From: an uncultured Candidatus Saccharibacteria bacterium
GTDB lineage: Bacteria; Patescibacteriota; Minisyncoccia; Phycocordibacterales; WO2-35-19
Direction: 5' to 3'
Length of the DNA stretch: 64,000 bases
Assembly: GCA_964548205.1 (NCBI GenBank)
Contig: CAZJPJ010000004.1
Location: 21,577 to 85,576, forward strand
Of the stretch, positions 877 through 59,835 are shown in pieces; the first letter of the stretch is position 1, and each line of letters begins with the position of its first letter. Under the pieces are notes generated by a model that worked only from the letters and a program-made list of their open reading frames with translations, was not told the DNA's origin and did not search any database. The translations under genes and the position numbers were made by a program.

Positions 877-1631
877 GGTCTTCTTATGAAATTGACGATT
901 ATATCTTTCACCTTATCCGCTTTCTCTATAAATGAGAAATGACCCGTACCGTCCAACTCCACAAGTTCAGAATTTTTTAGAAGCTTGTGAAGCCTCAAAC
1001 CTTGCTCAACGGGAGTCTCAAGATCATCCTTGCCCCAGATGAGTAAAGTGGGTGTATCTATTTTTTTTGCAAACTGACTCAAATCTTCATCTACCACAAC
1101 TTTGAATATATCTTTCATGTGCCCTGAGTTTATATATCCACTACCGAGCAGCTTATAAAATCTTCTTTTCAATCTGTCTTTGATCAAACTCAAAAAAGGC
1201 AGACTAAATACAAGATCACCAATTTTAGCTAGAGTCATAAATATAAATTTACGCATACCCGCAGTTTTCAAACCAGCAGCAGATATAAGTACAAGTTTTT
1301 CTGCATCTAGAACACCGCTTCCTACACCTTTCAAAATAATACGACCACCAAATGAATGTCCCAATAAGACCTGTGGGGATACCGATATTTTTTCTTGAAA
1401 TTTCTTTACAAAATTTACATAATCAGCTACCGACCAAGTCTCTTTGGGTCTATCACTCCCACCAAAGCCAGGTAGATCCAGACGTACAACCCGATACTCA
1501 TGTGAAAGAAAACCTGATATATCTGCAAAATCACCGGATTCTCTCCACCATCCATGCAAAAGTAGAGCCACTTTCTGATTTGACCCCTCTTCAAAATATT
1601 GAGTTTTTATACCATCAACTATTGTTTGCAT
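873..1631 (-). CDS. alpha/beta-fold hydrolase
   Basis: LLLHGWW near the N-terminus and the GHSFGG nucleophile elbow (GxSxG); length typical of the fold. Confidence 0.7.
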   Translation of the reverse strand: MQTIVDGIKTQYFEEGSNQKVALLLHGWWRESGDFADISGFLSHEYRVVRLDLPGFGGSDRPKETWSVADYVNFVKKFQEKISVSPQVLLGHSFGGRIILKGVGSGVLDAEKLVLISAAGLKTAGMRKFIFMTLAKIGDLVFSLPFLSLIKDRLKRRFYKLLGSGYINSGHMKDIFKVVVDEDLSQFAKKIDTPTLLIWGKDDLETPVEQGLRLHKLLKNSELVELDGTGHFSFIEKADKVKDIIVNFIRRP

Positions 1632-3342
1632 CGTTTACCAAGTATTCTCTTGTATTTCTAGCCATAAAGTCAATAACCTGCCTCATTACAGAAGTGGCTC
1701 CAACTAGGTTTTTTACTGGCCCTTTCTCCATAACCAAAGCGAAGGCATACTTAGGATTTTCATAGGGAAAGAAGCCTACTACCCAAGAATTTACAAACTG
1801 CTTCTTTGCACCGAGTTCTGCTGTACCAGTCTTAGCTGCGATAGCCACATCTTTGGTATTTAGACCTATGGCCGTAGAGTCAGTGACTGCCATACGCATA
1901 CCCTCACGTGCAATCTGAAAATGTTCGCTATCCCCTTCTATCTTTTCATTACTCTGAAGAACAGTTGACGTAGATGTAAACACGAGTGAAGGAGTGACGA
2001 GATGCCCACCATTTGCCAAGGCAGCCACAGCTCGGACAGCTTGTATAGGGGTTATTTGGGTTCCATATTGTCCAATAGATGTATTGTATGTATCACCTAT
2101 CCTCCACTCTTCTCCGTCAAATGTTTTAGCTTTCCATTCTGGATCAGGTATTACGCCGATAGCTTCGCTCCCAAAACCAAAACCGGTATCTCTAGCAAAA
2201 CCGAACTTCTCAAGATATTTTTTTATGTTGGCGACACCAAGACCTTTTTGGCTACCAAAGCCCCCACCAATCTGGTAGAAATATACGTCTGAAGATACAG
2301 CAATAGCCCTTCTCATATCTGTCGCACCATGAGCCTTCCAGTCCTTAAATATAGTGGGGTTGTCGGGATTATAAGGATTTGGTATCACTAAGCGACCGGT
2401 GCTTACGATCTCTCTTTCAGGAGTTATCACACCTTCCTCTAAAGCTGCAAAAGCGAGGAATGGCTTCACGATAGAGCCAGGTGTATAAAGACCATTATTT
2501 ATCCTCTCAAGAAAAGGATTGTCAGGATTTGAAAGATAAGAATTTATAACACCAACATCCGTACCGTCAGTCATCACTTGCGGATTATATTCTGGATAAC
2601 TCGTCATTGCTATTAATTCACCTGAATATATGTCCATTATGGCGCCAGTGCCACCCTTAAAATCAACTTTCTCTGCAAGATTTCTTATTTGTTTGAACAT
2701 TTCGTTTTGAATACGAGAATCAATCGAAAGAAATAAATCTTGGCCAGGTATAGGCTTTTCAACAACATTCTCAGATATAATATCCCCATTTACTGATACT
2801 TCTGAGAGTTTACTGCCGTTATACCCAGCAATAGCATCGTTCATATATAGTTCTACACCATCTTTTGGATCATAAGCTGCATTTATAAAGTAACCATTTG
2901 CATCCAAAGCGGGATTCTTCACAAACCCTAGCAATAAACCGAAGCCCTCTTCGTCAATGTACTTCCTTTGGGGAAATAATAGATCGGTAGATGTAGAAAA
3001 ATTATAAATCAGCTTTTCACCATTCCTACTATAAACTGTACCTCGAGGGGCTATTAGTAAACTTTTTTTCAAACTATTGTTGATACTACGTTCTCTAAAC
3101 ATATCTCCGTCTACTATCTGCAATGAATACAATTTTGTAGTAAAAACAAACAGTGTAATAACAATAAGGATTGTAGTGAAAATATATGAATACCTACTGA
3201 TTGGTCTTTCCAATCGACCCTCCATCTGATATTTATCAAAATCTGGTAAATTCCTAGAATCCAAAAAAACTTCGTCCGGATATATCTCCGACTTCGATTT
3301 TGAACTAATACGCCTGAGTGTACGTTTTAAACTTCCGAACAT
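1615..3342 (-). CDS. mrdA: penicillin-binding protein 2 (peptidoglycan D,D-transpeptidase), elongasome-associated
   Basis: N-terminal TM. SxxK (GSIVKPF) and KTG (AKTGTAE) motifs. Sits directly downstream of mreBCD. Confidence 0.85.
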   Translation of the reverse strand: MFGSLKRTLRRISSKSKSEIYPDEVFLDSRNLPDFDKYQMEGRLERPISRYSYIFTTILIVITLFVFTTKLYSLQIVDGDMFRERSINNSLKKSLLIAPRGTVYSRNGEKLIYNFSTSTDLLFPQRKYIDEEGFGLLLGFVKNPALDANGYFINAAYDPKDGVELYMNDAIAGYNGSKLSEVSVNGDIISENVVEKPIPGQDLFLSIDSRIQNEMFKQIRNLAEKVDFKGGTGAIMDIYSGELIAMTSYPEYNPQVMTDGTDVGVINSYLSNPDNPFLERINNGLYTPGSIVKPFLAFAALEEGVITPEREIVSTGRLVIPNPYNPDNPTIFKDWKAHGATDMRRAIAVSSDVYFYQIGGGFGSQKGLGVANIKKYLEKFGFARDTGFGFGSEAIGVIPDPEWKAKTFDGEEWRIGDTYNTSIGQYGTQITPIQAVRAVAALANGGHLVTPSLVFTSTSTVLQSNEKIEGDSEHFQIAREGMRMAVTDSTAIGLNTKDVAIAAKTGTAELGAKKQFVNSWVVGFFPYENPKYAFALVMEKGPVKNLVGATSVMRQVIDFMARNTREYLVNDANNS

Positions 3343-3351
3343 AAGATGATT

Positions 3352-3624
3352 TTACAATATTTTTCTCCATTCGACCCTATCCGAAAGTAAATTTACCAAA
3401 AAAAATACCACTAGAGACAGGATTGAAAAAGTATAGTTAAATACAAAACCGTCTCCTGTATAAAATAGTACATCACCAACAGCCCCCCAAAAAAATATCT
3501 CGATCGGGTTTCTAACCAATATCGGATAAATTATCATCGATATAATAAGAAACCACCAACCAAAAACAGTGCTTAAAACTAACATCAGAAGAGAAGAAAC
3601 GAATCTTAGAAAAACCTTATCCAT
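3352..3624 (-). CDS. mreD: rod shape-determining protein MreD-like small membrane protein
   Basis: 90 aa, entirely hydrophobic, positioned between mreC and the PBP2 gene. Confidence 0.5.
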   Translation of the reverse strand: MDKVFLRFVSSLLMLVLSTVFGWWFLIISMIIYPILVRNPIEIFFWGAVGDVLFYTGDGFVFNYTFSILSLVVFFLVNLLSDRVEWRKIL

Positions 3625-4427
3625 CAGTTTGAATTATCAATGACGTAGAGTGTATCCGTTTTCCTGATATCGAAAGGCAGGGACAACAATATTGTTTTAT
3701 TACCCAAACTATCAGCTTCTTTTATAGATCCTACAACTGCCAAAGTATAGTTGCCGATATAGTTCATGATTATTTTATCTCCGATATCAATATCAAAATC
3801 TTCTGGGACTACTGATTCAAAATTACCACTAGATATACCCTCAATATCCATGACTTCAAGCGTCCTTGATACATAACCGGTATGCTTGGTATTGTTATAA
3901 GAATTTATCTTCACAATAGATGTGTCAGTAAACACTTCAGTAATATATCCAAAAGCAGTATTTTCAGAAGCAAGAACCAACTGACCAACTTTAACACCAT
4001 CTGTTTCACCTATATTTATAATAACCGTGTCAAACAATGTCTGTGGAGATCGAGCTGTTACAGAAGCTCTTAAGAAAGAGCCCTTGATGTTGATACCCAG
4101 TTCATTTTTTAACTTACGACTTTCAAGGTACAGTGCGTCATAATCACTCTCTTTTAGTTTCAATTCAAAATTTTCTTCTTCTAAGTTTTTTATCCTATCT
4201 AAAAGCTCAGCTCTCGACGATAACCAAGTAGGAGTCAGGTCAATGTTTTGATACAATACCCTACCCCAAGAAAAATACTGTAAAAAAAATCTGGCTACAA
4301 CACTTCGAACCGAGCCGTTAGAAAATAAAAAAAATATCAGCAAAGCTGAAACAACTGATTTGTATAAAAATTTTGATTCTCTTCTTCTGTTATTATGTAA
4401 GCTCATTATCTTCGTTGAGTAACACAC
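3624..4427 (-). CDS. mreC: rod shape-determining protein MreC
   Basis: N-terminal TM, a coiled-coil segment (LEEENFELKLKESDYDALYLESRKLKNEL) and a beta-rich C-terminus; lies between mreB and mreD. Confidence 0.8.
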   Translation of the reverse strand: MCYSTKIMSLHNNRRRESKFLYKSVVSALLIFFLFSNGSVRSVVARFFLQYFSWGRVLYQNIDLTPTWLSSRAELLDRIKNLEEENFELKLKESDYDALYLESRKLKNELGINIKGSFLRASVTARSPQTLFDTVIINIGETDGVKVGQLVLASENTAFGYITEVFTDTSIVKINSYNNTKHTGYVSRTLEVMDIEGISSGNFESVVPEDFDIDIGDKIIMNYIGNYTLAVVGSIKEADSLGNKTILLSLPFDIRKTDTLYVIDNSN

Positions 4428-5475
4428 TCTTATACTTATCTAGATTCTCTAAAATAATACCCGTGCCCCTAACGACACAACTAAGTGGATTGTCTGCTAC
4501 ATAGACTGGTATTTTAGTTTCTTCGTGCAAAACATCTGCGATCCCTTTTATCAGCGCCCCACCACCAGCAAGATACAACCCTCTATGCATCACATCTGAC
4601 AAGATCTCTGGTGGAGTGACTTCAAGTACTTCCTTGGTTGCAATAACTAGCCGCTCGATTGAATTAGATATAGCATCTCTTACATCGACATCGGTCACAA
4701 CAACTTCCTTAGGCAAGCCACTTATTAGGTCCCTACCCCTTACTGCAATCTCTAGTGCTTCGTTACCAGGGATCAGTGCAGTTATGTTGGTCTTTATGAG
4801 TTCAGCCGTTTTTTCACCAATTACTATTTTAAACTCACTTCTTACATACGTAGCTATATCATTGTCCAGTTTGTCCCCTGCAATCTTTATGTTTTTAGAC
4901 CTTATAATACCCCCAGCAGATATGACAGCAATATCAGCAGTACCTCCTCCTATGTCTATAACCATATTGCCGATAGGTTCAAATATAGGCAGGTGCATAC
5001 CAACTGCTGCAGCTACAGGCTCTTCTATCAGATATACTTCACTTGCCCCTGCATTGCGAGTAGCATCTCGAACAGCCCGTGTCTCAACGTTTGTTATGCC
5101 AGATGGAACACCTACCACTACTCTAGGGCCCAAAATCCTACGAGATATGTTACCCACCTTATTCAACATATAGAAAATCATTTCTTCCGTAACCTCAAAA
5201 TCAGATATTACTCCATCGACAATAGGTCTTATAACTTCAATATGAGCCGGAGTTCTCCCAAGCATACTTCTGGCATCATTACCCACAGCTACAACCTGAT
5301 TAGTCTTGCGATTTATAGCGACAACAGAAGGCTCATTTATGACAATGCCTTTACCTTTTATGTAAACTAAAATATTGGCCGTACCGAGATCAATACCGAC
5401 ATCATTTTTCAGCAAGCTATGCCATTTTGATAATTTTTCAATAAATTTCATCGATTGATAGCATTTTAATTTCAC
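4393..5475 (-). CDS. mreB: rod shape-determining protein MreB (actin-like ATPase). The true start is probably downstream of the track start.
   Basis: VGIDLGTANILVY and DIGGGTADIAVIS phosphate-binding motifs. Confidence 0.9.
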   Translation of the reverse strand: MKLKCYQSMKFIEKLSKWHSLLKNDVGIDLGTANILVYIKGKGIVINEPSVVAINRKTNQVVAVGNDARSMLGRTPAHIEVIRPIVDGVISDFEVTEEMIFYMLNKVGNISRRILGPRVVVGVPSGITNVETRAVRDATRNAGASEVYLIEEPVAAAVGMHLPIFEPIGNMVIDIGGGTADIAVISAGGIIRSKNIKIAGDKLDNDIATYVRSEFKIVIGEKTAELIKTNITALIPGNEALEIAVRGRDLISGLPKEVVVTDVDVRDAISNSIERLVIATKEVLEVTPPEILSDVMHRGLYLAGGGALIKGIADVLHEETKIPVYVADNPLSCVVRGTGIILENLDKYKSVLLNEDNELT

Positions 5476-6706: not shown

Positions 6707-7798
6707 TCAAAGGAGGTTTGATATATCTTTTGCTGTTACAACAACCATGAGAACGATCAGTATGATAAATCCGATCAAGTTTGCCATACTTGCAAAACGC
6801 GGATTAAGAGGAGATCCTTTTATTGATTCTACCAAAACAAATAGCAACCTGCCCCCATCGAGTGCTGGAAATGGTATGAGGTTTATAACTGCAAGATTTA
6901 TAGATATCAGAGCGGTAAATGTAAGAAGATAAACAAATCCAAGTCTCGACGCATCTCCGACCAAACCAACTATCCCTATAGGCCCTGTAATACCTGAAAG
7001 GTCTGTCTCTGATTTGAATACTGACAACACCAGATCAAGGAGTCCGGTAACTGTCATTTTGGTCAATCTGGTTGCAAGTTTTACACCTTCTAAAAGAGAT
7101 TGAAAGAAAGGCAATCTTACCGTGCCCACCGTATCCATACTTATACCTATAGCTTTTCTACCTGAAACAATACCTGATTGTGGAGTTACTTCGACAAACA
7201 TGCCGTCATCTCCACGAGCAATACTCAGCAAAATATCCCCCTCTGCGCTATTAATAAAATCACTTACACTTTGGCTATCAACTTCATCTATAACTCTAGA
7301 ATCAGAAATAGACAGTATCACGTCACCGCTCTTTATTTGTGCTTCCGATGCAGGGCTGTTTGGCATAACAGAAGTTATAGTTAGCTTAGGATTTTCTACT
7401 ACTGCACCAAAATCATTGTCACTTGTAGTCGGCATACCAGACATAAAGGCTAGTGCAAACAAGAAACAGGCAAATATGAAATTGAACAGTACTCCCGCCA
7501 CCAAAATCAGAGCCTGCGAAATCTTTGAGACCTCAGTAAAACTTTTACCTACCTTTGTTGATCCGTCTTCATCTTCTTCTGTATAATTTTCACCAAATAT
7601 TTTTACAAAACCACCAAACGGTACCCAGTTTAACGTAAAGATGGTTCCCCACTTTTTTGTTATAGTTAGAGCCCTAGGAGGATACCCAAAACCAAATTCA
7701 TCGACTCTTACACCTGCTTTTTTTGCAAACAAAAAATGCCCACACTCGTGTACAAGCACAAGAATTCCGAGTATTAATATAAAGATTATTATCGTCAT
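6707..7798 (-). CDS. rseP: RIP zinc metalloprotease RseP (site-2 protease) with a PDZ domain
   Basis: HECGHFLFAKKAG HExxH motif inside TM1, a central PDZ-like region, and multiple TMs. Confidence 0.85.
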   Translation of the reverse strand: MTIIIFILILGILVLVHECGHFLFAKKAGVRVDEFGFGYPPRALTITKKWGTIFTLNWVPFGGFVKIFGENYTEEDEDGSTKVGKSFTEVSKISQALILVAGVLFNFIFACFLFALAFMSGMPTTSDNDFGAVVENPKLTITSVMPNSPASEAQIKSGDVILSISDSRVIDEVDSQSVSDFINSAEGDILLSIARGDDGMFVEVTPQSGIVSGRKAIGISMDTVGTVRLPFFQSLLEGVKLATRLTKMTVTGLLDLVLSVFKSETDLSGITGPIGIVGLVGDASRLGFVYLLTFTALISINLAVINLIPFPALDGGRLLFVLVESIKGSPLNPRFASMANLIGFIILIVLMVVVTAKDISNLL

Positions 7799-8346
7799 TA
7801 TTGCTTTATTTCTTTCTCCTTCTTTAAGGCCATCTCATCTAGCCCCTTAGAAGTTTCATCAATTATTTTTTGCATTTCTTCCTTCAACCTAAACTTCATG
7901 TCTTCGCTTATCTCTCCAGACTTCTCATCATCTTGGATCTGACTCCATTCTTTGTCTCTTACATTTCTTAGAGAAATTTTTGATTCTTCTAGTTTCTTAC
8001 GAGTCAATTTTACAAACTCGTCTCTTCTCTCAGAAGTTAATTCTGGGAAAATTATCCTGACACCCTTTTCATACGGAGAAGAGCCAAGACCCAGGTTTGA
8101 GGTAGCTATAGCCCTTTCGATATCCTTTATGATACTGAGGTCATAAGGTTCTACTCTTATAGTTTTCGGATCTTCAAGGTTTATAGAGGCAAGCTCCTTG
8201 ATGGACATCTTAGACCCGTAAGCATCGACCATAATACTATCGAGCATAGCCGTAGCCGCTCTACCTGTACGTATAGCGGACAATTCTTTTTCAAAAAAAT
8301 CCTTTACTTCTTTTGTTTTGTTTTTAAGATTAGAGAAATCTTTCAT
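7798..8346 (-). CDS. frr: ribosome recycling factor
   Basis: RTGRAATAMLDSIMVDAYG... signature, 182 aa. Confidence 0.9.
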   Translation of the reverse strand: MKDFSNLKNKTKEVKDFFEKELSAIRTGRAATAMLDSIMVDAYGSKMSIKELASINLEDPKTIRVEPYDLSIIKDIERAIATSNLGLGSSPYEKGVRIIFPELTSERRDEFVKLTRKKLEESKISLRNVRDKEWSQIQDDEKSGEISEDMKFRLKEEMQKIIDETSKGLDEMALKKEKEIKQ

Positions 8347-8379: not shown

Positions 8380-9000
8380 TTATAGATAATAAGCCAGCCA
8401 CTCAAGAATCATCTTATGAGATACGCCTTTTTGTAGAGCGTACTTCAGTCCCAACATGATTTTCTCTAATTCTTTATAATTGCGATCTTTCTTTTCCTTG
8501 AAGTATAACTCAGCCTCTTCAATGAGATTTGGCAAGCTTTCTTTGTCTAGATTTTTCTTATCTCTTATTATCTCTAATCTAGATTTCATATCTTTGTCCC
8601 AGAAATCTGATTTGGTAGGAGCGGCCACAAGATCATGGGTTATCATCCTAGATCTAAGAGTTGGCAGTATAAATTTTTGGTTTTTTATGATGATATAGAG
8701 ATATGTCCACGACCTTATCTCTTCAACTTCTTTCAGCAAGGCATTCTGAGACTCTACAGTCATAGAACTTGTAACAATGACGCACACCTTCCTATCGCCT
8801 ACAGGTTTCAATTTTGCCCACTCTTCAAAAAAACGGGAGTCATCGATGCCAAAATTGACCACATCTATCACCAGAAAATCTGGATTACCGAGAACACTAT
8901 ATCCACTTGCCTCAAGTCTTGATTTTATTTGGCAAAAAGCCTCCTTTCCACCAAACACCAAGTTTGCTTGGTGCATTTTGTCTAAACTCTCAAAAAACAT
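8380..9000 (-). CDS. holB: DNA polymerase III delta-prime-like clamp-loader subunit, N-terminally short
   Basis: QNALLKEVEE ... ILPTLRSRM resembles the AxNALLKxLEEPP and SRC sensor motifs of delta-prime. No Walker A is present. Confidence 0.5.
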   Translation of the reverse strand: MFFESLDKMHQANLVFGGKEAFCQIKSRLEASGYSVLGNPDFLVIDVVNFGIDDSRFFEEWAKLKPVGDRKVCVIVTSSMTVESQNALLKEVEEIRSWTYLYIIIKNQKFILPTLRSRMITHDLVAAPTKSDFWDKDMKSRLEIIRDKKNLDKESLPNLIEEAELYFKEKKDRNYKELEKIMLGLKYALQKGVSHKMILEWLAYYL

Positions 9001-9003: not shown

Positions 9004-10053
9004 TTATCTTTTTGATACAGAAGCTCTCTTATAAGCATCGAGGTGATCTAATGCAATTCCGGCACCTTTTACAACACAATACAGAGACTCATCAGCAAGT
9101 GCGGCTTTCACTCCTATCCTACGCAAAACCAACTCTGGAAAATTGCGAAGATTCGATGTTCCTCCAGTCATAATGATACCGTTATCTATAATATCGGCAG
9201 CCAATTCAGGTGGAGTATTTTCCAAAGCTTGCTTCATGGCTTGGATCATTTCTCTAAGTTCTTTAGTGATAGCTTTTACCACCTCGTTGGTTTTTAGTTC
9301 AATAATTTTCGGCAAGCCAGAGACTACATCCCTACCCTTCACATTCATCGACAATTCCTCAGATATTGGCAAAGCCGAACCTATCCCTATCTTTACTTCT
9401 TCGGCCATCTTGTCACCGATAAAGATATTGAATGTTTTCTTTACATAGTCGACTATGGCTTCATCTATCCTATTGCCCGCACATTTGACGCTAGTAGAAG
9501 CTACAATACCCCCAAGCGATATAACCGCGACATCTGTAGTACCACCACCTATATCCACAATCATATGACCTTGAGCTTCATATATTGGGATACCAGCTCC
9601 GATAGCGGCGAGAATCGGCTCCTTTACCACATAAGCATTTCTTGCTCCAGCCTTTATAGCAGCCTCAATCACAGCCCTCCTTTCAGTCGAAGTGATACCA
9701 GCTGGTACAGATATGAGAACTTCTGGTTTTATGAAATTCCACCTACCTAAAGCTTTATGAATATAATACTTCAACATAGCTTCTGTCACTTTATAATCCG
9801 CTATGACTCCATCTTTGAGAGGCCTATAAGCGGCAATAGCATCTGGGGTCCTACCAACCATCACTTTGGCATCGTTACCGACTGCCAATATCTTGTTATT
9901 GTCTAAAGATACAGCAACAACTGAAGGTTCGTTTAAAACTACACCACTTCCTGGTAAAAATACGAGAGTATTAGCTGTACCTAGATCTATACCGAGTTTT
10001 TTGGAGAAAAGAGACATAAAGGATAATATACAAGTTTTTTGCATCATCTTCAA
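9004..10053 (-). CDS. second MreB/Mbl-family actin-like protein (paralog)
   Basis: LGIDLGTANTLVF and DIGGGTTDVAVIS motifs; 349 aa. Confidence 0.8.
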   Translation of the reverse strand: MKMMQKTCILSFMSLFSKKLGIDLGTANTLVFLPGSGVVLNEPSVVAVSLDNNKILAVGNDAKVMVGRTPDAIAAYRPLKDGVIADYKVTEAMLKYYIHKALGRWNFIKPEVLISVPAGITSTERRAVIEAAIKAGARNAYVVKEPILAAIGAGIPIYEAQGHMIVDIGGGTTDVAVISLGGIVASTSVKCAGNRIDEAIVDYVKKTFNIFIGDKMAEEVKIGIGSALPISEELSMNVKGRDVVSGLPKIIELKTNEVVKAITKELREMIQAMKQALENTPPELAADIIDNGIIMTGGTSNLRNFPELVLRRIGVKAALADESLYCVVKGAGIALDHLDAYKRASVSKR

Positions 10054-10099
10054 CCCATTATTTCTTGCGTCTTAGAGCATTCTCTATTTTACTTATACT

Positions 10100-11983
10100 A
10101 TGTATCTTGTGAGCTGCACAATTTTGGAAAAAAATATCAAGAAAAATCTATCTTATTTTTCCAGTGAAAATTATGAGATTGGCTCCCTTATAAAAGTAAA
10201 AATAAGAAATAAAAACACTATTGGCCTAGTAACAGAGACCAAGAGTATTCTGGACGAAAAAATCGCCATTAGAAAGATGGGGTTCCCACTGAAAAAAGTA
10301 GTATCTAAGCATTATTCAGATTTCCTTTTAAAACCATTTTTGGAAAGCACGAGAGAAATCGCAAACTTTTACGCTACTACACAGGGAGCTGTTTTACGTC
10401 AGTTGATACCAGATTCCCTCCTCGAAAATCAAAATCTTATAAAGGTAGAGGGGGGGTTCAACATAACGGCTAATAATATAGAAAGAATTAATGTTTTGCA
10501 GGCGAATACAAACGAGCGCTACGATCATTATCGAACAATCATCCGTACTGAATTTGCAAAGAAACATTCAGTTTTTATATGTGTATCCAGAAATGACGAA
10601 GCAATCAAACTGAAAGAATTTCTTGGAAAAGGCATTGAAAAGTTTATAGCTACTCCAGAAACTTTTATGTCTAAAAAGGATATGAAAGCAGAGGTAATTA
10701 AGGCCGTGGACCGAAACCACCCTGTTCTAGTTATTGCCACAGGTTCTTGGCTTTTTTTACCGCGCACTGATTGGGGTTTGTTTATTATTGAGGGTGAGAA
10801 TTCGAATAATTGGTCAAGTTTTGGTAGTCCTTTTATAGATATGAGGGAGGTTACTAAATCAATATCAAAGCACTATGGCGCAACTCTTGTATTAGGAGAT
10901 AGCTTTCTTAGGATAGAGACCCTGTACCAATACAAGAACCAAAAATATGGCGAATTTGGATCTGTAAAATGGCGGCTCAGTCCAGAAGTTGATTGTCAGA
11001 TATTTGATAAGAGCGACGAAGTCAAGTTGAACAAGGACCCAAAAATATTGTCATCAATGATCCTAGAGAAAATCGAGCAAGCAATAAAAAGCAAGAAAAA
11101 TGTCTTCATATATTCTCCTCGCAAAGGTTTGGCCTCAAGCATTTTGTGTAGAGATTGTGGCCAAACCATAGAATGCAGCAACTGCAACTCTCCCATGGTC
11201 TTATACCGCCTCCATGATGAGAACATCTTTCGCTGTCATCAATGCGGAGAAAAGAGATCATCTAAGGAACTCTGCAAGATGTGTGGAGGTTGGAGACTGA
11301 TATCACTTGGTAGCGGCTCAGAAAAAATATCAGATGAAGTATCTAAGCATTTCAAAGACACATACGTATTTGAAATAAGTAAGGACAAAACTAAAACAAG
11401 CAAGCAAGTAAAAGATACTATCAGCAATTTTTTCCAAAAAAAAGGCAGTGTCTTGGTAGCCACAGAAATGGCACTTCCGTATATTTACAAACCAGTACCT
11501 CTTGTAGTAGCGGCTTCTCTTGCCCCATTATTTTCGATTCCAAACTTCAAAATTAACGAAAAGATATTCAAATTAGTGCTAGAGCTAAGAAATATGGCTA
11601 AGGATTTGTTCGTAGCCGAATCATATGGCAGCGACAAAGAACTTTTAGAAAAAGCTGTAAAAGGAGACGTTATGTCTTTTTATCAAGAAGAACTTAGCGA
11701 TAGAGAACTTTTGAATTATCCCCCATTTTCTATATTTATAAAAATAACTGTCAGAGGGACCAAAGAATTCGTAGAGAGAGAATCAGCTACTATCTTGGAT
11801 TTATTAGACAGTTATGATGTCACCACATTTCATTCGTTACATGAGAAAAAAGGACAGCCGTCAGCAATAAATATAGTAATAAAGCAAGATATCGAAAATT
11901 ATCCAGACATTGAACTTATAGCTATACTTAAAGATTTGCCCCTACATTTTGAGGTAAAAGTATCACCTGACAATCTGTTATAG
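10100..11983 (+). CDS. priA: primosomal protein N' (PriA) homolog with degenerate helicase/ATPase motifs
   Basis: N-terminal 3'-DNA-binding-like region. The zinc-binding Cys-rich region CRDCGQTIECSNCNSPMVLYRLHDENIFRCHQCGEKRSSKELCKMCGG is intact, and the C-terminal ...DRELLNYPPF fits PriA. Walker A is absent (YRTIIRTEF where GVTGSGKT is expected), DEEH is replaced by EGEN, and motif VI is lost. Confidence 0.7.
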   Translation: MYLVSCTILEKNIKKNLSYFSSENYEIGSLIKVKIRNKNTIGLVTETKSILDEKIAIRKMGFPLKKVVSKHYSDFLLKPFLESTREIANFYATTQGAVLRQLIPDSLLENQNLIKVEGGFNITANNIERINVLQANTNERYDHYRTIIRTEFAKKHSVFICVSRNDEAIKLKEFLGKGIEKFIATPETFMSKKDMKAEVIKAVDRNHPVLVIATGSWLFLPRTDWGLFIIEGENSNNWSSFGSPFIDMREVTKSISKHYGATLVLGDSFLRIETLYQYKNQKYGEFGSVKWRLSPEVDCQIFDKSDEVKLNKDPKILSSMILEKIEQAIKSKKNVFIYSPRKGLASSILCRDCGQTIECSNCNSPMVLYRLHDENIFRCHQCGEKRSSKELCKMCGGWRLISLGSGSEKISDEVSKHFKDTYVFEISKDKTKTSKQVKDTISNFFQKKGSVLVATEMALPYIYKPVPLVVAASLAPLFSIPNFKINEKIFKLVLELRNMAKDLFVAESYGSDKELLEKAVKGDVMSFYQEELSDRELLNYPPFSIFIKITVRGTKEFVERESATILDLLDSYDVTTFHSLHEKKGQPSAINIVIKQDIENYPDIELIAILKDLPLHFEVKVSPDNLL

Positions 11984-12032
11984 AGTTTATCCGGACCTAT
12001 CAACATTCAGGTCTTTATGCTAAATTCTAGCT

Positions 12033-12587
12033 ATGGAAAAAGATATTTTACAAAAGGATGATCCTATTCTTAGGTTGACAGCCAAGTCAGTAGAAGTGGA
12101 GGATATAACATCTAGAAAAATACAGACAATAATAAGACGAATGCAAAAAGCTCTCGAATCGCAAGACGATGGAGTTGCCATCGCTGCACCTCAAATAGGA
12201 GAATCTCTTAGGATTTTTGTAGTGTCAAAAAGAGTATTCGATATTCTGGAGGAAGAAAATAGGACAAACAATGAGGATGAAATAGGATCAAAAAACAACA
12301 AAGATATGGGTAAAACTAAGGATTTAGTCTTTATAAATCCAGTCATCATAAAACAATCAAAGAAAAAGATTATGCTTGAAGAGGGTTGTCTTTCTGTAAG
12401 ATGGTTATATGGATTGGTCCAAAGATCTGAAAAAACAACAGTTCGAGCTTATGATGAAATGGGTAAAATTTTTACTTTTGGGGGATCTGGCATCATGTCG
12501 CAGATTTTTCAACACGAGACGGATCACCTAGATGGCGTATTATTTATCGACAAAGCAAAAAATTTGAAAGATATACCACCAGAATAA
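12033..12587 (+). CDS. def: peptide deformylase
   Basis: EGCLSV and QHETDHLDG motifs. Confidence 0.9.
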   Translation: MEKDILQKDDPILRLTAKSVEVEDITSRKIQTIIRRMQKALESQDDGVAIAAPQIGESLRIFVVSKRVFDILEEENRTNNEDEIGSKNNKDMGKTKDLVFINPVIIKQSKKKIMLEEGCLSVRWLYGLVQRSEKTTVRAYDEMGKIFTFGGSGIMSQIFQHETDHLDGVLFIDKAKNLKDIPPE

Positions 12588-12591: not shown

Positions 12592-13470
12592 ATGTTAGAT
12601 ATCATCAATAAAAAAGAGAATTTTGTTTTTTTTGGATCATCAGAAATGTCTGTTTTTGTGCTTGATGAATTGAAAGCGCATGGTCTTGTACCAAAAATGA
12701 TAATCTCTACCCCAGATAAGCCTAAAGGAAGGAAGCTAGTGATGACTCCTTCGGTGGTGACAAATTGGGCTCTTGAGAACAACATAGAGGTATTGAGACC
12801 AGTCTCACTAAAAAATAACCAAGAAATAGTAGAGATTTTACAGAAAGGAAACTACCAGTATTTTTTGGTAGCATCTTATGGAAAACTCATACCAAGCACT
12901 ATATTTGATATCCCAGAAAAGAAAACTATCAATATACATCCTTCTTTGCTACCAAAATATAGAGGCGCTTCACCTGTACAAGCTCAAATACTTGAAGACG
13001 AGAAAGAAGTAGGAGTAAGTATAATGCTAATAGATGAGGAGATGGACCATGGACCACTATTAGCTCAGGAAAAAGTACAGATAGAAATGTGGCCATTAGG
13101 TAGAATCGAACTCGAAAAAATATTGGCAAAACGAGGAGCCTTACTTTTTCTACAGACCATTGAAAATTGGATTCTAGATAATGTAACACCACAAACACAA
13201 GATGAATCGAAAGTCATCCTTTGCAAGAAAATTATCAAAGAAGATGGCTTATTAAACATAAGTAATCTCGACTACAAACAATTCCTGAAAATTAAGGCTT
13301 TCGAAGGATGGCCCGGAACATTTTTTTTGTTTGATACTGGTGATAAAAAAATAAGAGTCATAGTAAAAGAAGCTCTTTGGAAAGACTGTGAGGTGGAAAT
13401 AACAAAAGTCCTACCTGAGGGTAAGACTTTGATGTTATATAAAGATTTCTTAAGAGGTTACAACAGATAG
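12592..13470 (+). CDS. fmt: methionyl-tRNA formyltransferase
   Basis: FFGSSE...TPDKPKGRK and NIHPSLLPKYRGASP motifs; the def-fmt pairing is classic. Confidence 0.9.
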   Translation: MLDIINKKENFVFFGSSEMSVFVLDELKAHGLVPKMIISTPDKPKGRKLVMTPSVVTNWALENNIEVLRPVSLKNNQEIVEILQKGNYQYFLVASYGKLIPSTIFDIPEKKTINIHPSLLPKYRGASPVQAQILEDEKEVGVSIMLIDEEMDHGPLLAQEKVQIEMWPLGRIELEKILAKRGALLFLQTIENWILDNVTPQTQDESKVILCKKIIKEDGLLNISNLDYKQFLKIKAFEGWPGTFFLFDTGDKKIRVIVKEALWKDCEVEITKVLPEGKTLMLYKDFLRGYNR

Positions 13471-22065: not shown

Positions 22066-24486
22066 CTAAAGTTCTTCGACCTTCACCTCAATTTTCCCTC
22101 CACTTTTCACTTCCCCACTGATTATCTTCTTTGCCACAGCGTCCTCGACGATAGTTTTGACGGCTCTATTTATAGAGCGAGCTCCAAACTTCGGATCGGC
22201 CCCCTTTTCTACAAGATAGCGAACAAGTTCATCTGTTATGACTAATTCTATCTCTTTACTTACGAGTTGCTCTTTCAGTTTTTCTAGCTCGAGCCTAGCG
22301 ATAGTAGCGAGGTTCTCGTTACCAAGTGGCTCGAACACAACCAGTCCATCGAAGCGGTTTAGAAGCTCTGGTTTAAATATTTTTTGTTCCACAATTTTAT
22401 TTATTATTTCATCTTTTTCTTCTGCCAAATTTTTACCCTCACTCTCCGCTTTCCATATAAGGTCACTGCCTGCGTTTGAAGTAGCTATGATGATGAGGTT
22501 ACGACAATTTACCTTATTACCAGAAGCATCGCTAAAAAATCCTTCATCCAGTATTTGTAAGAATAGATCATGGACTTCCCTAGAAGCCTTTTCAAATTCA
22601 TCAAGGAGCAATACTCCATACGGGTTATCTTTGACTTTGCTCGAGAGTATCCCAGGTTTACCATCAGAAAAGTTCCCTATAAGACGAGAGAGTGCATCAA
22701 AACCACTATATTCGGACATGTCTATTCTTACCATCTTGTCTTCGCTCCCAAAATACACTAGAGCCAAAGTCTTTGCAGTCTCTGTCTTACCTACACCGGT
22801 TGGGCCAAAGAAAAGGAAGGAGCCTATCGGTCTATTTGGATTGCCGAGTCCTGACCTTGCTCTCCGTACCGCGCTCGACACTGTATCTACGGCAAATTTC
22901 TGACCGACTACCCTCTCCCCAAGCAAAGATTCTAGTCTATTTATCTTCTCCATCTCTTCTTCTCCGACTTTACCGATCTTTATACCAGTCTTTTCTGACA
23001 CATAAGCCACCACATCTTCTTCTTTCAAAATCTGGCCTTTCACAAGCTTTGTACTCAATACCTCATCGAGAAGATCTAGAGCTTTTTCTGGCATCTCACC
23101 GGTAGTGATATGACGCACAGCAGAGAGCACTATCTGCTTTATCGCTCCGAAGCTAACCAATATCTTCTTACCATCCTCTATTGATCTTACTTTTTCTATT
23201 ATTACAGGCAGCGAAGAATCTTCATGCACTTCAACCGGAAGGACTCTTTCAAATTTTTCTGAAAGTTCTGCACTTGTCTCCAAAAAGAAATGGAAATCAG
23301 CCGATGTAGAATGAGCAACAATGTTCAGTGAAGACGAATTGAGATACGGAGAAAGTAGTGACGCTACATTTACACCGCTCTGTTTGGCGCTGACCAAAAA
23401 AGATGGTAAGTCTCTGATATATAGGATTATATTACCTGCATTTGATGCTTGAGTTAGGAGTTTCAATATTTCAGATTCTATGTCAGCTTTATTCTTAAAG
23501 GTTGCTAAAAGCGCAGACCAATCCAACTCTATGATTTCCTTATGTTCGATATTAGGCAACGCAATCCCAAGCCTTATCTTGCGCAAAAGCCTAGCTACAA
23601 TATCTCTAGAGACATCCTCGCTATTGCTTACTATTACTGCATTGGCCTCCTCACTCCTTTCTAAAATACCTTCGAGGATAGAGACTTCGTGTTCTCTGTA
23701 CCCATTTTCAAGATTGATAAGTGACAAATCTATAGTATTTCCAAAACTTCTGCCATATTTACCAAGCTCAAATGAAATACCGTAGCTCCAAGATTTACCG
23801 ATAGAGGGGATACTACCGAGCTTCTCCCTACCCCAAAACCTTTCTTCCCGTCTCTCTCGTTCTATCGATTCCGCTTCCATCAGAGCTGCTCCAAGAAATT
23901 CTTTTTTTCCTACATTGTGAGTATTCAAAAACTGAGCAAAGACTTTATCCAATTCATATACCGCACTAAGATAGCTGACAAGATCTGATTGTTCGTTTTC
24001 TGTATTGACTGAACCAGAAATGATAGGGGTACGCGCTCCGTCGACAAAACCTTGCCATTCATCCTTTTCGACACCACTTCTTTCAAGCACTCTTTTGCCA
24101 GTCTTACTTTCAAATATGCCCCTCGTTATATCTATCTCACTTGTGTGGTAAAGGATCTCAGATAGTGCAAAGTCGATCCGTCTATTTTCTTTGAGGTTGC
24201 GTTCTACCACTCTCGAATATATCCCTTCACCTTTCATAGAATGGTAGAAAAATTCTATAGAAGCGAAAATCAGATAGAAAAATACAAACAAGAAAAACAA
24301 TGCGTCAGCAAAACTAAAATCTAGGGGCAATACATCTATAGATGCAAACGACAATATGAAGGAGAAAAGTGCCAAAGTAGCCGAGAGCTTCCTAAAAACA
24401 GCCCGCAAAAAACGTGGCAAAAACCTGTCTATAGTTAGGACCAAGGCATGAGGTCTGCTTATTTCCTTTATTTTACTGAAAGTCAT
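22066..24486 (-). CDS. Clp/Hsp100-family AAA+ ATPase, ClpC-like, with an N-terminal transmembrane region and a degenerate first AAA domain
   Basis: D2 is intact: FFGPTGVGKTETAKTLA (Walker A), VLLLDEFEKA (Walker B), IIIATSN, LLNRFD. In D1, Walker A and B are replaced (SNSEDVSR and ILYIRD). The N-terminal 90 aa are hydrophobic. Confidence 0.75.
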   Translation of the reverse strand: MTFSKIKEISRPHALVLTIDRFLPRFLRAVFRKLSATLALFSFILSFASIDVLPLDFSFADALFFLFVFFYLIFASIEFFYHSMKGEGIYSRVVERNLKENRRIDFALSEILYHTSEIDITRGIFESKTGKRVLERSGVEKDEWQGFVDGARTPIISGSVNTENEQSDLVSYLSAVYELDKVFAQFLNTHNVGKKEFLGAALMEAESIERERREERFWGREKLGSIPSIGKSWSYGISFELGKYGRSFGNTIDLSLINLENGYREHEVSILEGILERSEEANAVIVSNSEDVSRDIVARLLRKIRLGIALPNIEHKEIIELDWSALLATFKNKADIESEILKLLTQASNAGNIILYIRDLPSFLVSAKQSGVNVASLLSPYLNSSSLNIVAHSTSADFHFFLETSAELSEKFERVLPVEVHEDSSLPVIIEKVRSIEDGKKILVSFGAIKQIVLSAVRHITTGEMPEKALDLLDEVLSTKLVKGQILKEEDVVAYVSEKTGIKIGKVGEEEMEKINRLESLLGERVVGQKFAVDTVSSAVRRARSGLGNPNRPIGSFLFFGPTGVGKTETAKTLALVYFGSEDKMVRIDMSEYSGFDALSRLIGNFSDGKPGILSSKVKDNPYGVLLLDEFEKASREVHDLFLQILDEGFFSDASGNKVNCRNLIIIATSNAGSDLIWKAESEGKNLAEEKDEIINKIVEQKIFKPELLNRFDGLVVFEPLGNENLATIARLELEKLKEQLVSKEIELVITDELVRYLVEKGADPKFGARSINRAVKTIVEDAVAKKIISGEVKSGGKIEVKVEEL

Positions 24487-29846: not shown

Positions 29847-30233
29847 ATGAAAAAAGATTTTAAAGATTGGCACAAAGAAAAAAGTTGCTTGCAGGAAGAT
29901 AAGGTTCGTCCATTTTTTCATGAGAGAGAAGTTTGGTTTGCCTCTGTTGGTTTAAATATTGGTTTTGAACAAGACGGTAGAGGGGATAGATTCTTGAGAC
30001 CAGTTATTATTTTAAAGAAATTTAACAATGAAGTACTCTGGTGTATACCACTTACAAAAAATCAGAAGAAAGGGAAATATTATCTTCAATTTAGACTTGG
30101 AGATGAAACCAGCACAGCCATACTCTCTCAGATTCGCCTGATAGATTCAAAAAGATTGCAGTACAAAATCGGAAACCTTGAAGTAGATGACTTTAGTGAA
30201 CTAAAAAAGAAAATCACCCAAATTCTTGGATGA
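29847..30233 (+). CDS. PemK/MazF-family endoribonuclease toxin-like protein, solitary (no adjacent antitoxin ORF)
   Basis: EVWFASVGLNIGFEQDGRGDRFLRPVIILKK...LWCIPLTKNQKK...AILSQIRLIDSKRLQYKIGNL matches the MazF/PemK fold pattern. TATAAT lies 14 nt upstream. Confidence 0.55.
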   Translation: MKKDFKDWHKEKSCLQEDKVRPFFHEREVWFASVGLNIGFEQDGRGDRFLRPVIILKKFNNEVLWCIPLTKNQKKGKYYLQFRLGDETSTAILSQIRLIDSKRLQYKIGNLEVDDFSELKKKITQILG

Positions 30234-37379: not shown

Positions 37380-37451
37380 CGGGTCCAGCAGGACTCGAAC
37401 CTGCAACCTCGGTTTTGGAGACCGATGTTTTACCATTGAAACTATAGACCC
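37380..37451 (-). tRNA. tRNA-Trp (anticodon CCA)
   Basis: GGGTCTATAGTTTCAATGGTAAAACATCGGTCTCCAAAACCGAGGTTGCAGGTTCGAGTCCTGCTGGACCCG. Confidence 0.85.
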
Positions 37452-37717
37452 TAAAAATCTAGCCTGTAAATATCCTTGTGATGGCCGATGTATAGGAATG
37501 TTACAACATCTCCGGAAAAATGAAAAATGATACGGTAGGCTCTATCTACCCTAAAACTCCAAATATTCAACTGCTTTGGAGAAAGTTTCTCAGTATTAAG
37601 AGAAGGATAAAACATATTAGCCCGAAACACAGCCTCCTGTTTCTGAGCTTTTCGTTGAATTACAGGTGTTAATTGTTCATACATACGAATAAATTTTCGT
37701 GTATAAACAATCTGCAT
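37451..37717 (-). CDS. RelE/ParE-family toxin (type II TA)
   Basis: 88 aa; ...LRVDRAYRIIFHFSGDVVTFLYIGHHKDIYR resembles the C-terminal motif of the RelE/ParE fold. Confidence 0.6.
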   Translation of the reverse strand: MQIVYTRKFIRMYEQLTPVIQRKAQKQEAVFRANMFYPSLNTEKLSPKQLNIWSFRVDRAYRIIFHFSGDVVTFLYIGHHKDIYRLDF

Positions 37718-45462: not shown

Positions 45463-45511
45463 CGTCGGTGGTAGAGCTTGCCCCGCCACGGCGGGGTGAA
45501 GTCAATTACAA
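45463..45511 (+). repeat. tRNA-Tyr 5' fragment (positions 1-27) with a 25-nt GC hairpin inserted in the D-loop, immediately upstream of the GIY-YIG gene
   Basis: gcgtcggtggtagag [cttgccccgccacggcggggtgaag] tcaattacaa compared with the intact tRNA's gcgtcggtggtagagtggtcaattacaa. Confidence 0.65.
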
Positions 45512-45512
45512 T

Positions 45513-45755
45513 ATGTGGTATGTATATATTCTCAAAAGCTTGAAGGATGAAAAATACTATATAGGTTGTACAGATAATTTAGAGAGAAGAATTGATCAAC
45601 ACAACAGAGGAGAAAATTCATCGACTAGATTCCGGAGACCTTTTGAGTTAATCTATACAGAAACATACGCGAATAGCAGTATTGCTTATTCGAGAGAAAA
45701 GAAAATAAAAAGATACAAAGGTGGAAATACCTTTAGGAAATTGATAAGTAAATAA
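45513..45755 (+). CDS. GIY-YIG nuclease family protein (small, UPF0213/YhbQ-like)
   Basis: MWYVYILKSLKDEKYYIGCTDNLERRIDQHNRG, the GIY-YIG motif. The ATG at 45513 is preferred; the track ORF starts from an upstream GTG that lies inside the tRNA fragment. Confidence 0.7.
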   Translation: MWYVYILKSLKDEKYYIGCTDNLERRIDQHNRGENSSTRFRRPFELIYTETYANSSIAYSREKKIKRYKGGNTFRKLISK

Positions 45756-45756: not shown

Positions 45757-45840
45757 GCGTCGGTGGTAGAGTGGTCAATTACAACAGACTGTAAATCTGT
45801 CGGCCTTAGGCCTACGCAGGTTCGAATCCTGCCCGGCGCA
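45757..45840 (+). tRNA. tRNA-Tyr (anticodon GTA), class II long variable arm
   Basis: GCGTCGGTGGTAGAGTGGTCAATTACAACAGACTGTAAATCTGTCGGCCTTAGGCCTACGCAGGTTCGAATCCTGCCCGGCGCA. Confidence 0.85.
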
Positions 45841-52723: not shown

Positions 52724-52805
52724 TGCCCGAGGTGGGGGTCGAACCCACATCCCTTTCGAGACACGATTTTAAGTCGTGCGCGTATACCGATTCCGCCACT
52801 CGGGC
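52724..52805 (-). tRNA. tRNA-Leu (anticodon TAA)
   Basis: GCCCGAGTGGCGGAATCGGTATACGCGCACGACTTAAAATCGTG...GGGTTCGACCCCCACCTCGGGCA. Confidence 0.8.
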
Positions 52806-52876
52806 ATCCGCCTACACTTCGCACAAGCGAAGCGCTGAACTTTTATAGTCGCTCCCTGCTCCTTAAAAATTCAAGG

Positions 52877-52948: not shown

Positions 52949-52980
52949 GTGTCGCAATATTAACATATTGACCTATTTTA

Positions 52981-53296: not shown

Positions 53297-53297
53297 G

Positions 53298-59546: not shown

Positions 59547-59552
59547 TTTAAC

Positions 59553-59831: not shown

Positions 59832-59835
59832 ATTG

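Follow-up and report, generated by a model that had tools for sequence, protein, structure and literature searches.

Loss of the ATP-site motifs in a PriA orthologue of Paceibacteria: a predicted pseudohelicase under purifying selection

Introduction

Within the 64-kb stretch of DNA analysed here (the window), an open reading frame on the + strand (10100 to 11983) resembles priA, and a first-pass annotation had described its product as a PriA that keeps its fork- and zinc-binding modules but can neither hydrolyse ATP nor unwind DNA. This raises the question of whether the protein is a PriA at all and, if so, what role a PriA lacking its motor might play in the cell. Both natural and engineered precedents exist. 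PriA of D. radiodurans has no ATPase or helicase activity and binds ssDNA, forks and DnaB; its Walker A lysine is replaced by arginine and its Walker B motif is a poor match (PMC4504706, Lopper et al. 2015). [quoted passage not shown] The PriA pseudohelicases already known from Deinococcus-Thermus had gone unmentioned in the first-pass annotation.

A literature search on PriA in Patescibacteria, the Candidate Phyla Radiation (CPR), Parcubacteria and Thermotoga found nothing relevant. Helicase-dead PriA has so far been reported only in Deinococcus-Thermus, and the Paceibacteria case described here is apparently unreported.

Identity and genomic setting

The reading frame opens with ATG, contains no internal stops and ends with a stop codon at 11981-11983, giving a protein of 627 aa in the ORF list. 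The NCBIfam model TIGR00595 recognised this protein with an E-value of 8.7e-53; its bit score of 179.6 lies below the model's cut-off of 230.35, and all PRK05580 equivalog models scored far under their own cut-offs. Homology to PriA is certain, and equivalog status is without support from the family thresholds. Against PriA chains in the PDB, phmmer returned a best E-value of 3.6e-25. Identity to canonical PriAs is only 16-24%, varying with method and region.

Directly 3' of the priA-like gene lies def (12033-12587, + strand; Pfam Pep_deformylase, 1.3e-41), followed by fmt (12592-13470, + strand; Pfam Formyl_trans_N, 1.4e-32). Twenty-five Paceibacteria loci share the gene order frr-holB-mreB / priA-def-fmt / hpf, with all seven genes present in 20 of them; the remainder are truncated by contig ends, and holB was undetected in L025. 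As far as the contigs extend, priA-def-fmt was found in every one of the 25 loci (fmt is cut off in L002). Given the sequence and structure matches, the classic priA-def-fmt setting and the fact that the window contains a single PriA-like locus, the ORF at 10100-11983 is a PriA orthologue.

Fold and domain layout

An AlphaFold (AF2) model of the protein (pLDDT 86, pTM 0.85) was compared with solved PriA structures using Foldseek. The best E-value was 5.5e-36 (8fak_H), and TM-scores against crystal and cryo-EM structures of PriA ranged from 0.74 to 0.79, the top match by TM-score being 6dcr_A, the E. coli winged-helix (WH) deletion protein (TMq 0.79). The next match that was not a PriA, Mfd, was far weaker (1e-7, TM 0.39). 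Two RecA-like lobes and the C-terminal domain (CTD) are placed in the model as they are in the solved structures.

The N-terminal 3' DNA-binding domain (3'BD; aa 1-104, 10100-10411, + strand) retains the pocket residues Tyr19 and Lys65, corresponding to E. coli Y18 and K61, whose functions are taken from PMC5778457. Tyr19 is conserved in 100% and Lys65 in 85% of the family of homologues described below. The Pfam model for this domain, PF17764, gave an E-value of 1.5e-3 for the ORF protein, and was found in 42 of 46 family members (best E 1.3e-10). A linker of ~24 aa (aa 105-128, 10412-10483, + strand) then replaces the WH domain, visible as an alignment gap at approximately E. coli 112-217, a stretch comprising the WH domain (E. 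coli 109-181) and the linker that follows it. Short canonical PriAs such as P0116, in which Walker A lies at aa 145, likewise lack the WH domain, which is therefore a non-universal feature of PriA.

RecA-like lobe 1, catalytically degenerate, occupies aa ~129-300 (10484-10999, + strand), as judged from the beta/alpha pattern of the AF2 model and alignment to E. coli 219-390. Inserted in lobe 2 is the Cys-rich region (CRR; aa 346-400, 11135-11299, + strand; Pfam PF18319, E 1.4e-3) with four CxxC pairs (C350/353, C359/362, C379/382 and C392/395); in PriA structures these pairs make up two Zn sites. All eight cysteines are 100% conserved, both in the family and in canonical PriAs. The CTD (aa ~511-627, 11630-11980, + strand) aligns to E. 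coli 600-732, is covered by the Foldseek alignments, and shares R535, the P541-P542 hinge and P623 with canonical PriAs. The first-pass annotation had stated that the 3'BD, zinc region and CTD align well to PriA. Their presence was borne out by full-length alignment and fold, which were the sole means of seeing the CTD; "well" was too generous for the Pfam matches to the 3'BD and zinc ribbon, which are sub-threshold (E ~1e-3).

Loss of the helicase motifs

All the motif strings quoted in the first-pass annotation were recovered from the translation, and Walker A is indeed absent. In place of motif I (canonical GVTGSGKT) the protein reads QANTNERY (aa 134-141; 10499-10522, + strand), with R140 aligned to the E. 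coli Walker lysine K230. This column holds arginine in 99% of the family, as against lysine in 100% of canonical PriAs, and the glycine-rich loop has given way to an acidic [DE]-E-[ED]-R. Motif II, or Walker B, is EGEN instead of DEEH (aa 231-234; 10790-10801, + strand; family consensus [ED]-x-E-[NS]). Motif III is GDSFLR rather than GSATPA (aa 266-271; 10895-10912, + strand), in which the conservation of D267 and R271 is peculiar to the family (98% and 89% of the family, respectively, vs 0-8% of canonical PriAs). Motif VI has become LELRNMAKD (aa 494-502; 11579-11605, + strand), having lost both arginine fingers of the canonical TQVAGRAGR along with a deletion of 3-5 residues. Alignment to canonical PriAs found no Q motif in the ORF protein.

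Other parts of the helicase core survive as fragments only (motifs Ia/Ib, IV and V). T214 and P221 remain from motif Ib. The motif IV remnant PRKGL (canonical NRRGF; 11117-11131, + strand) keeps R341 and G343, conserved in 98% and 100% of the family and invariant in canonical PriAs, while the motif V remnant ATEMA (canonical GTQM..KG; 11459-11473, + strand) keeps T455, its glutamine having changed to glutamate. The claim that every motif is degenerate is thus correct where the motifs contact ATP (Q, I, II, III and VI), and goes too far for R341-K-G343, T455 and T214/P221.

Aligning the protein with PriAs from diverse bacteria and from close relatives, as had been suggested, confirmed the losses. 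Twelve canonical PriAs share 106 (near-)invariant columns; across a sample of 131 family members only 28 of these persist, with no nucleotide contact among them. In E. coli numbering, the family has lost the EQ of the Q motif; G224, T226, S228, G229, K230 and T231 of motif I; D320, E321 and H323 of motif II; S356, A357 and T358 of motif III; Q540, K544, G545 and D547; and Q580, G583, R584, G586 and R587 of motif VI. Conversely, ~17 positions are conserved in at least 85% of the family and rare in canonical PriAs. Several of them lie in the former active site, and R140, R149, D267, R271 and W398 are among these clade-specific residues.

From these residue losses, the protein is predicted to be unable to bind or hydrolyse ATP, to translocate or to unwind DNA. 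Could it instead bind or hydrolyse nucleotide through non-canonical residues, R140 standing in for the lysine and E231/E233 for the DE pair, and so act as a weak helicase or translocase? The near-universal arginine at the Walker lysine position and the two acidic residues left in the Walker B strand would fit such a cryptic enzyme, as would the second, weak nucleotide site suggested for E. coli PriA (PMC5778457), whose position was never established. However, the acidic stretch that replaces the P-loop should repel phosphate, nothing is left of the Q motif, of motif III or of the two arginine fingers in motif VI, and no match to Pfam DEAD/ResIII was found in any of 46 family members (DEAD and Helicase_C were also undetected in the ORF protein). 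Furthermore, K230R alone is sufficient to kill the ATPase of E. coli PriA, and D. radiodurans PriA, which also carries arginine, has no measurable ATPase. We regard a cryptic enzyme as very improbable.

A clade-wide family under purifying selection

At least 370 of the homologues fetched share the motif losses, and 1,597 clusters (50% identity) matched the protein at E<=1e-30. Walker A is missing from 371 of 389 fetched full-length proteins; the pattern in the other 18 belongs to 13 canonical PriAs and to five family members in which it falls at non-homologous positions. The Paceibacteria PriA family forms a single clade in a neighbour-joining (NJ) tree, and the same substitutions recur throughout it despite pairwise identities of 26-57%. 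The suggestion that the loss is lineage-wide was therefore right for Paceibacteria, with more than 370 homologues in one clade.

Estimates of dN/dS between relatives were 0.06-0.15 overall and low in every domain, lobe 1 included (0.04-0.10), although these values are approximate as dS is near saturation in most pairs and ~1 only for L002/L013 and L002/L004. The priA-like gene is under purifying selection. It nonetheless evolves faster than its neighbours, with PriA identity at 39-44% compared with 75-82% for MreB, and the ORF protein itself departs from the family consensus at P163S, G454A and D475A. This fast evolution and these departures fit a relaxed constraint, and a reduced or altered role would be possible.

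Might the missing motifs simply reflect a mistake in sequencing or assembly, a shifted reading frame or a pseudogene in decay? The TIGR00595 score of 179.6 against a cut-off of 230.35 bits and the few conserved family sites that deviate in the ORF protein could be read in this way. Five points stand against it: the frame is open over 627 aa, and hundreds of homologues of equal length align with its product from one terminus to the other; P0001, encoded in an independent assembly, is 100% identical to it; a six-frame search of 10001-12000 found no P-loop, since the only sequence fitting the pattern spans a stop codon; dN/dS is low; and the same substitutions are shared across a clade of highly divergent members. 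These refute the artefact and pseudogene readings as far as in-silico data allow, leaving them scarcely conceivable. Two outcomes that the first-pass annotation had named as fatal to its proposal are settled by the same evidence: hand translation had overlooked no P-loop, and the open ORF, the identical P0001 and the substitutions shared by relatives exclude a frameshift or sequencing error as the cause.

Comparison with known systems

The ORF protein has much in common with canonical PriA (E. coli and K. pneumoniae; PDB 4NL4, 6DGD, 6DCR and 8FAK): the 3'BD, two RecA-like lobes, an eight-cysteine CRR in lobe 2 and the CTD. At the family level, the likeness extends to Y18 and K61, the R-G of motif IV, the G-T of motif V (G454A in the ORF protein itself), R625, the PP hinge and the adjoining def-fmt. 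It differs in that canonical PriA has functional SF2 ATPase motifs and, in E. coli, a WH domain.

Among the closest known systems is D. radiodurans PriA, in which the Walker lysine is likewise replaced by arginine, the DNA-binding domain and Cys-rich region are kept, and the trait is phylum- or clade-wide. Both sequence hallmarks of the Deinococcus-Thermus-type pseudohelicase were found here, namely the lysine-to-arginine change at R140 and a Walker B that departs from DExH (EGEN), as was its conservation in a lineage, the trait being clade-wide and under selection. In contrast, D. radiodurans belongs to another phylum and, in the published description on which this comparison relies, the loss concerns motifs I and II, whereas the Paceibacteria protein has had motifs Q, I, II, III and VI erased, carries a deletion in motif VI and an acidic P-loop, and has no WH domain. 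The E. coli K230R protein bears the identical substitution at the Walker lysine. Nevertheless, K230R and K230A/D are engineered single-site mutants of a PriA that is otherwise canonical, has 732 aa and includes a WH domain, and they need PriB and DnaT, neither of which was found in the window, while the Paceibacteria protein has lost all ATP-site motifs naturally.

Proposed function

The first-pass annotation had recommended looking for priB, dnaT and dnaB/dnaC loaders. This was done for the 64-kb window, in all ORFs of at least 130 aa and in 20 of the longer small intergenic ORFs; none of DnaB, DnaC/DnaI, DciA, SSB, PriB or DnaT was detected among them. PriB and DnaT are not known outside proteobacterial lineages.

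The analysis as a whole suggests that the protein is probably an ATP-independent adaptor for fork recognition and helicase recruitment, a priA orthologue turned pseudohelicase with its whole fold kept. The central proposal of the first-pass annotation, a PriA that keeps its fork and zinc modules but can no longer hydrolyse ATP or unwind, likewise gains in-silico support from the residue losses, the lysine-to-arginine precedent, the intact fold and purifying selection, and stands as a prediction. Abandoned forks and D-loops would still be recognised via the 3'BD pocket together with the inert RecA-like lobes, which may serve as a passive DNA-binding surface. The face formed by the CRR and CTD would recruit the replicative helicase DnaB, either directly or via a loader and SSB; because no partner was detected in the 64-kb window, this step is proposed on the model of D. 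radiodurans and E. coli priA300. The single-stranded lagging-strand template might be exposed by SSB or other helicases or, alternatively, the protein may be confined to forks with a pre-existing gap. Within the former ATP site, the clade-specific, conserved charged residues R140, E231/E233, D267, R271 and E456 are probably linked by salt bridges into a network that stands in for the nucleotide and sets the geometry between the lobes.

Alternatively, the PriA fold may have been neo-functionalised, with no role in restart; its inert lobes, zinc ribbons and clade-specific residues (R140, R149, D267, R271, W398 and others) would then perform another DNA- or protein-binding task or hold another ligand in the old ATP pocket. 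The ~17 family-conserved positions that are rare in canonical PriAs, several of them in the former active site, would suit this explanation, as would the lack of restart partners in the window. Dead lobe 1 is also among the most constrained parts of the protein, and mere loss of function needs no such constraint. Yet the parts that are kept, the 3'-end pocket, CRR and CTD, are precisely those with which PriA recognises forks and binds partners. In all relatives examined the gene still occupies its ancestral priA-def-fmt position, the window holds no other PriA-like gene to provide restart, and the dead PriA of Deinococcus keeps fork and DnaB binding. We consider neo-functionalisation unlikely.

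Returning to the adaptor reading, its parts may be joined into a broader proposal, to which we give slightly less than even weight: that Paceibacteria, a whole major class of the CPR (>1,000 sequence clusters), have relied throughout their history on a PriA unable to use ATP for restart, and that the pocket was rebuilt as a charged lock (R140, E231/E233, D267, R271, E456) holding the lobes in a nucleotide-independent, fork-binding state. If so, and given that Deinococcus-Thermus and Pseudothermotoga would be two further independent cases, each of the three lineages converging on a lysine-to-arginine change at the Walker position, the core of PriA would be structure-specific scaffolding, and its helicase activity an accessory that has been repeatedly lost along a preferred mutational path.

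Implications and evolutionary origin

Paceibacteria would provide a second lineage, far larger and phylogenetically distant from the first, in which PriA has a dead motor and is maintained by selection; Pseudothermotoga would be a third. This lends weight to the idea that PriA is indispensable for recognising forks and recruiting the helicase rather than for unwinding, and offers natural separation-of-function proteins for studies of ATP-independent restart. A further question is what exposes the lagging-strand template in such minimal genomes. For annotators, the label "primosomal protein N' (superfamily II helicase)" in CPR genomes is likely to overstate activity and calls for caution.

The PriAs of Saccharimonadia (TM7; P0116/P0124) come from the same phylum (Patescibacteria/CPR) and from similarly small genomes, and are also short (~645 aa), with no WH domain and Walker A at aa 145. 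In contrast to the Paceibacteria family, they are fully canonical, with GKTGSGKT, DESH, GSATP and GRxSRG motifs and detectable PF00270 and PF00271. On these sequences, the loss appears specific to Paceibacteria as opposed to Saccharimonadia, the two classes that make up this comparison within Patescibacteria. Since the family is monophyletic and Saccharimonadia, the sister class, have a canonical PriA, we infer that the Paceibacteria loss was independent of that in Deinococcus-Thermus.

The first-pass annotation had tied the loss to reduced genomes. As a cause, genome reduction was rejected: Saccharimonadia, whose genomes are just as reduced, have retained a canonical PriA, which makes reduction alone an insufficient explanation, and Pseudothermotoga, a non-reduced lineage, has lost PriA motifs independently. 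Saccharimonadia PriA is also by far the more conserved of the two: all listed homologues below the five closest are 68-72% identical to P0116, compared with the 26-57% seen within the Paceibacteria family.

Identity of the protein as PriA

The priA-like ORF of the ORF list comprises 627 codons at window 10100–11983 (+). The NCBIfam priA model TIGR00595 matched residues 147–557 of its product (the query) with an E-value of 8.7e-53, at a score of 179.6 bits that lies below the curated cut-off of 230.35. Pfam returned weak matches to the 3′ DNA-binding domain and the PriA zinc ribbon and detected no DEAD or Helicase_C domain in the query, and phmmer against PDB sequences recovered PriA chains only (K. 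pneumoniae and E. coli, E ∼4e-25). An AlphaFold2 model, built with 46 family sequences as input, was confident (mean pLDDT 86, pTM 0.85), and in Foldseek every solved PriA structure ranked ahead (E 5.5e-36 to 1.7e-25, TM 0.69–0.79) of Mfd and DEAD-box proteins, the next matches (E ∼1e-7, TM <0.4). Its top TM-score match, the E. coli winged-helix-deletion protein 6dcr_A, agrees with the alignment, in which E. coli PriA residues ∼112–217, including the winged-helix domain (109–181), lie opposite a 24-residue linker. The query is PriA. It is not an ‘equivalog’, given that the curated score and the helicase motifs both fail, and it agrees with PriA in all structural and positional criteria of orthology.

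Helicase motifs lost and recognition modules kept

A MAFFT alignment of the query with E. coli PriA (from NC_000913) and seven canonical PriAs bore out the losses of Walker A, Walker B, motif III and motif VI quoted in the first-pass annotation. Walker A (motif I), GVTGSGKT in E. coli, reads QANTNERY, with R140 facing K230; Walker B (motif II) DEEH reads EGEN; motif III GSATP reads GDSFL; motif V GTQM..KG reads ATEMA; motif VI QVAGRAGR reads ELRNMAKD followed by a deletion; and the Q-like motif (L..EQ) falls within a deleted region. No Walker A pattern was found in any frame of the priA-like region, so no intact P-loop had been overlooked in translation.

Twelve canonical PriAs (from Proteobacteria, Bacillota, Thermotoga, Saccharimonadia and others) supplied 106 invariant or nearly invariant reference columns, 28 of which are retained in 131 sampled members of the family, i.e., the Paceibacteria homologues that share the loss of ATP-site motifs. 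These include Y18 and K61 of the 3′-end pocket, P253, P310 and, in the aromatic loop, Y327 (E. coli numbering); R427/G429 (motif IV), G538/T539 (motif V), D560, R625, P631/P632 and P729 are kept as well. The roles of Y18 and K61, the Cys-rich region (CRR) and the aromatic loop in PriA are summarised in PMC5778457. All eight CRR cysteines are also retained, upholding the claim that the zinc-binding region survives. With these recognition columns in place, a PriA fold re-purposed for another role is an unlikely reading. Nucleotide contacts among the 28 columns number zero, and a cryptic ATPase is very improbable.

A selected family, not an artefact

Starting from the query and from P0112, a divergent member, word-indexed searches gave ∼230 clusters of 600–690 aa from Zambryski-, Nomura-, Yonath- and ‘Pace’-bacteria; precomputed PF00270/PF00271 annotations occur in none of these, and are present in the first canonical matches. 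HMMER, run exhaustively against 1.84 billion representatives, yielded 1,597 matches at E ≤ 1e-30, the best 150 being nearly all full-length relatives at 29–43% identity. Walker A is absent throughout from 371 of the 389 full-length proteins fetched; the remainder comprise 13 canonical PriAs with a genuine motif and five pattern matches at non-homologous positions. Arginine occupies the Walker-Lys position in 99–100% of both sub-families, which alike carry [ED]-x-E-[NS], G-D-x-x-[LP]-R-x-E and G-T-[EIQ] and lack motif VI. The family is monophyletic in a neighbour-joining tree, with no canonical sequence inside it.

Nei-Gojobori dN/dS between the closest pairs was 0.06–0.15 overall and 0.04–0.10 in the dead lobe 1, as low as in the CRR or the C-terminal domain (CTD), with dS near saturation in both cases. 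The first-pass annotation had allowed for a frameshift or sequencing error, against which stand these ratios, the conserved gene order and P0001, a protein from an independent assembly that is identical to the query. The gene is neither an artefact nor a pseudogene, and we give almost no credence to the reading that it is one.

The query itself departs from near-invariant family residues at P8I, P163S (motif Ia Pro), Y238W, G454A (motif V Gly) and D475A, and its closest relatives are just 43–44% identical. PriA in this lineage seems more relaxed than even the family norm.

Scope and precedents of the loss

The loss had been proposed as a lineage-wide feature of reduced genomes. Lineage-wide it is within Paceibacteria, where the family is monophyletic; the link to reduced genomes did not hold, because Saccharimonadia (TM7), Patescibacteria as reduced as Paceibacteria, keep a highly conserved, fully canonical PriA of ∼645 aa without a winged helix. 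Loss of the helicase motifs is thus a trait of the Paceibacteria lineage and not a result of small genomes as such.

A pattern scan for related loci also brought in Thermotogota. PriA of Thermotoga sp. (L027 and L028, 5092–7335) is canonical (GPTGSGKT, DEEHD, GSATP, GRSGRRG), and that of Pseudothermotoga MAGs (L029 936–3167; L030 2824–4812) is degenerate (GSTIEERL, AEESDD, CSSEP, motif VI lost), again with Arg at the Walker-Lys position. The two are mutual nearest neighbours at 40% identity. Judged from these sequences, the Pseudothermotoga loss looks like a separate, independent, third origin of a PriA pseudohelicase; we found no literature report of it.

Deinococcus-Thermus have already provided the PriA pseudohelicase as a kind, and Paceibacteria would be a new lineage for it; literature searches found no publication describing the Paceibacteria protein. 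PriA of D. radiodurans has no ATPase or helicase activity and binds ssDNA, forks and DnaB (PMC4504706), Deinococcus being the sole exception named in a standard review (PMC5778457). [quoted passage not shown] The query, D. radiodurans PriA and E. coli K230R share this Lys-to-Arg substitution. Compared with Deinococcus-Thermus, the Paceibacteria lineage is much larger and its degeneration more complete.

Proposed function

This analysis shows that the protein is a PriA orthologue with a PriA fold, that its ATP site is lost and its recognition and zinc modules are kept, and that it is under selection. The Paceibacteria protein probably acts as an ATP-independent adaptor that would recognise abandoned forks or D-loops by their 3′ end, keep the DNA bound to its inert lobes and recruit DnaB, its loader or SSB via the CRR/CTD face; any lagging-strand duplex would have to be unwound by another factor. 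Clade-specific conserved charged residues suggest that a nucleotide-mimicking salt-bridge network could occupy the old ATP pocket.

Gene neighbourhood and other observations in the window

Upstream of and divergent from the priA-like gene lie mreB (9004–10053, −), a short holB-like gene (8380–9000, −) and frr (7798–8346); downstream are def (12033–12587, +), fmt (12592–13470, +) and then a convergent hpf. The order frr-holB-mreB, priA-def-fmt, hpf is kept across 25 Paceibacteria species representatives, with all seven genes detected in 20 loci; the other five are cut by a contig end or have no detectable holB (L025). At species level, the locus is most closely related to those of Zambryskibacteria and other Paceibacteria MAGs. 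The window has the look of a Patescibacteria (CPR) genome: its GC is ∼36–45%, and its housekeeping genes include murein, tRNA-synthetase and T4SS-pilin-like ones.

The holB-like product (206 aa, DNA polymerase III delta′-like), which adjoins priA, matched the Pfam delta2 model in its C-terminal half only, and its gene is the most rapidly evolving of the conserved neighbourhood (30–37% identity among relatives). Two full-length MreB paralogues (4393–5475 and 9004–10053, both −; Pfam MreB_Mbl, E ∼2e-131 each) lie <5 kb apart, near mreC and a PBP2-like transpeptidase (1615–4427).

An 806-aa Clp/Hsp100-like protein (22066–24486, −) has an intact second AAA module (GPTGVGKT, VLLLDE; AAA_2 E 2e-40), a first module undetected by Pfam and without Walker A or B, and a hydrophobic N-terminus that looks membrane-associated. 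By its motifs it is apparently half dead as an ATPase, a further such case in the genome that carries the priA-like gene; a canonical two-module ClpB is encoded at 46353–49040 (−). An unusual fusion joins an N-terminal HTH_3 (XRE-type) DNA-binding domain (aa 19–67) to a MurA-like enolpyruvyl transferase (40294–41826, −; EPSP_synthase fold, E 3e-50). Toxin-like ORFs are MazF/PemK-like (29847–30233, +; E 1e-10) and ParE/RelE-like (37451–37717, −; E 8e-8).

Of two small stand-alone GIY-YIG nuclease ORFs, one (45468–45755, +; E 3e-17) directly adjoins a tRNA gene (45757–45840), and the other (54760–55041, −; E 9e-16) lies ∼1.3 kb from a tRNA cluster (52724–53496), among short ORFs without a family match (53.5–55.6 kb). 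A local GC peak (55674–58227, +), reaching 0.53 at 56–58 kb against 0.36–0.45 elsewhere, spans an SPFH/Band-7-like ORF (55674–56852) and a 417-aa ORF without a Pfam match (56974–58227), and may be a foreign island. Five small paralogous T4SS_pilin (PF18895) ORFs stand in tandem at 59106–60981 (−), namely 59106–59546, 59553–59882, 59836–60114, 60135–60548 and 60550–60981.
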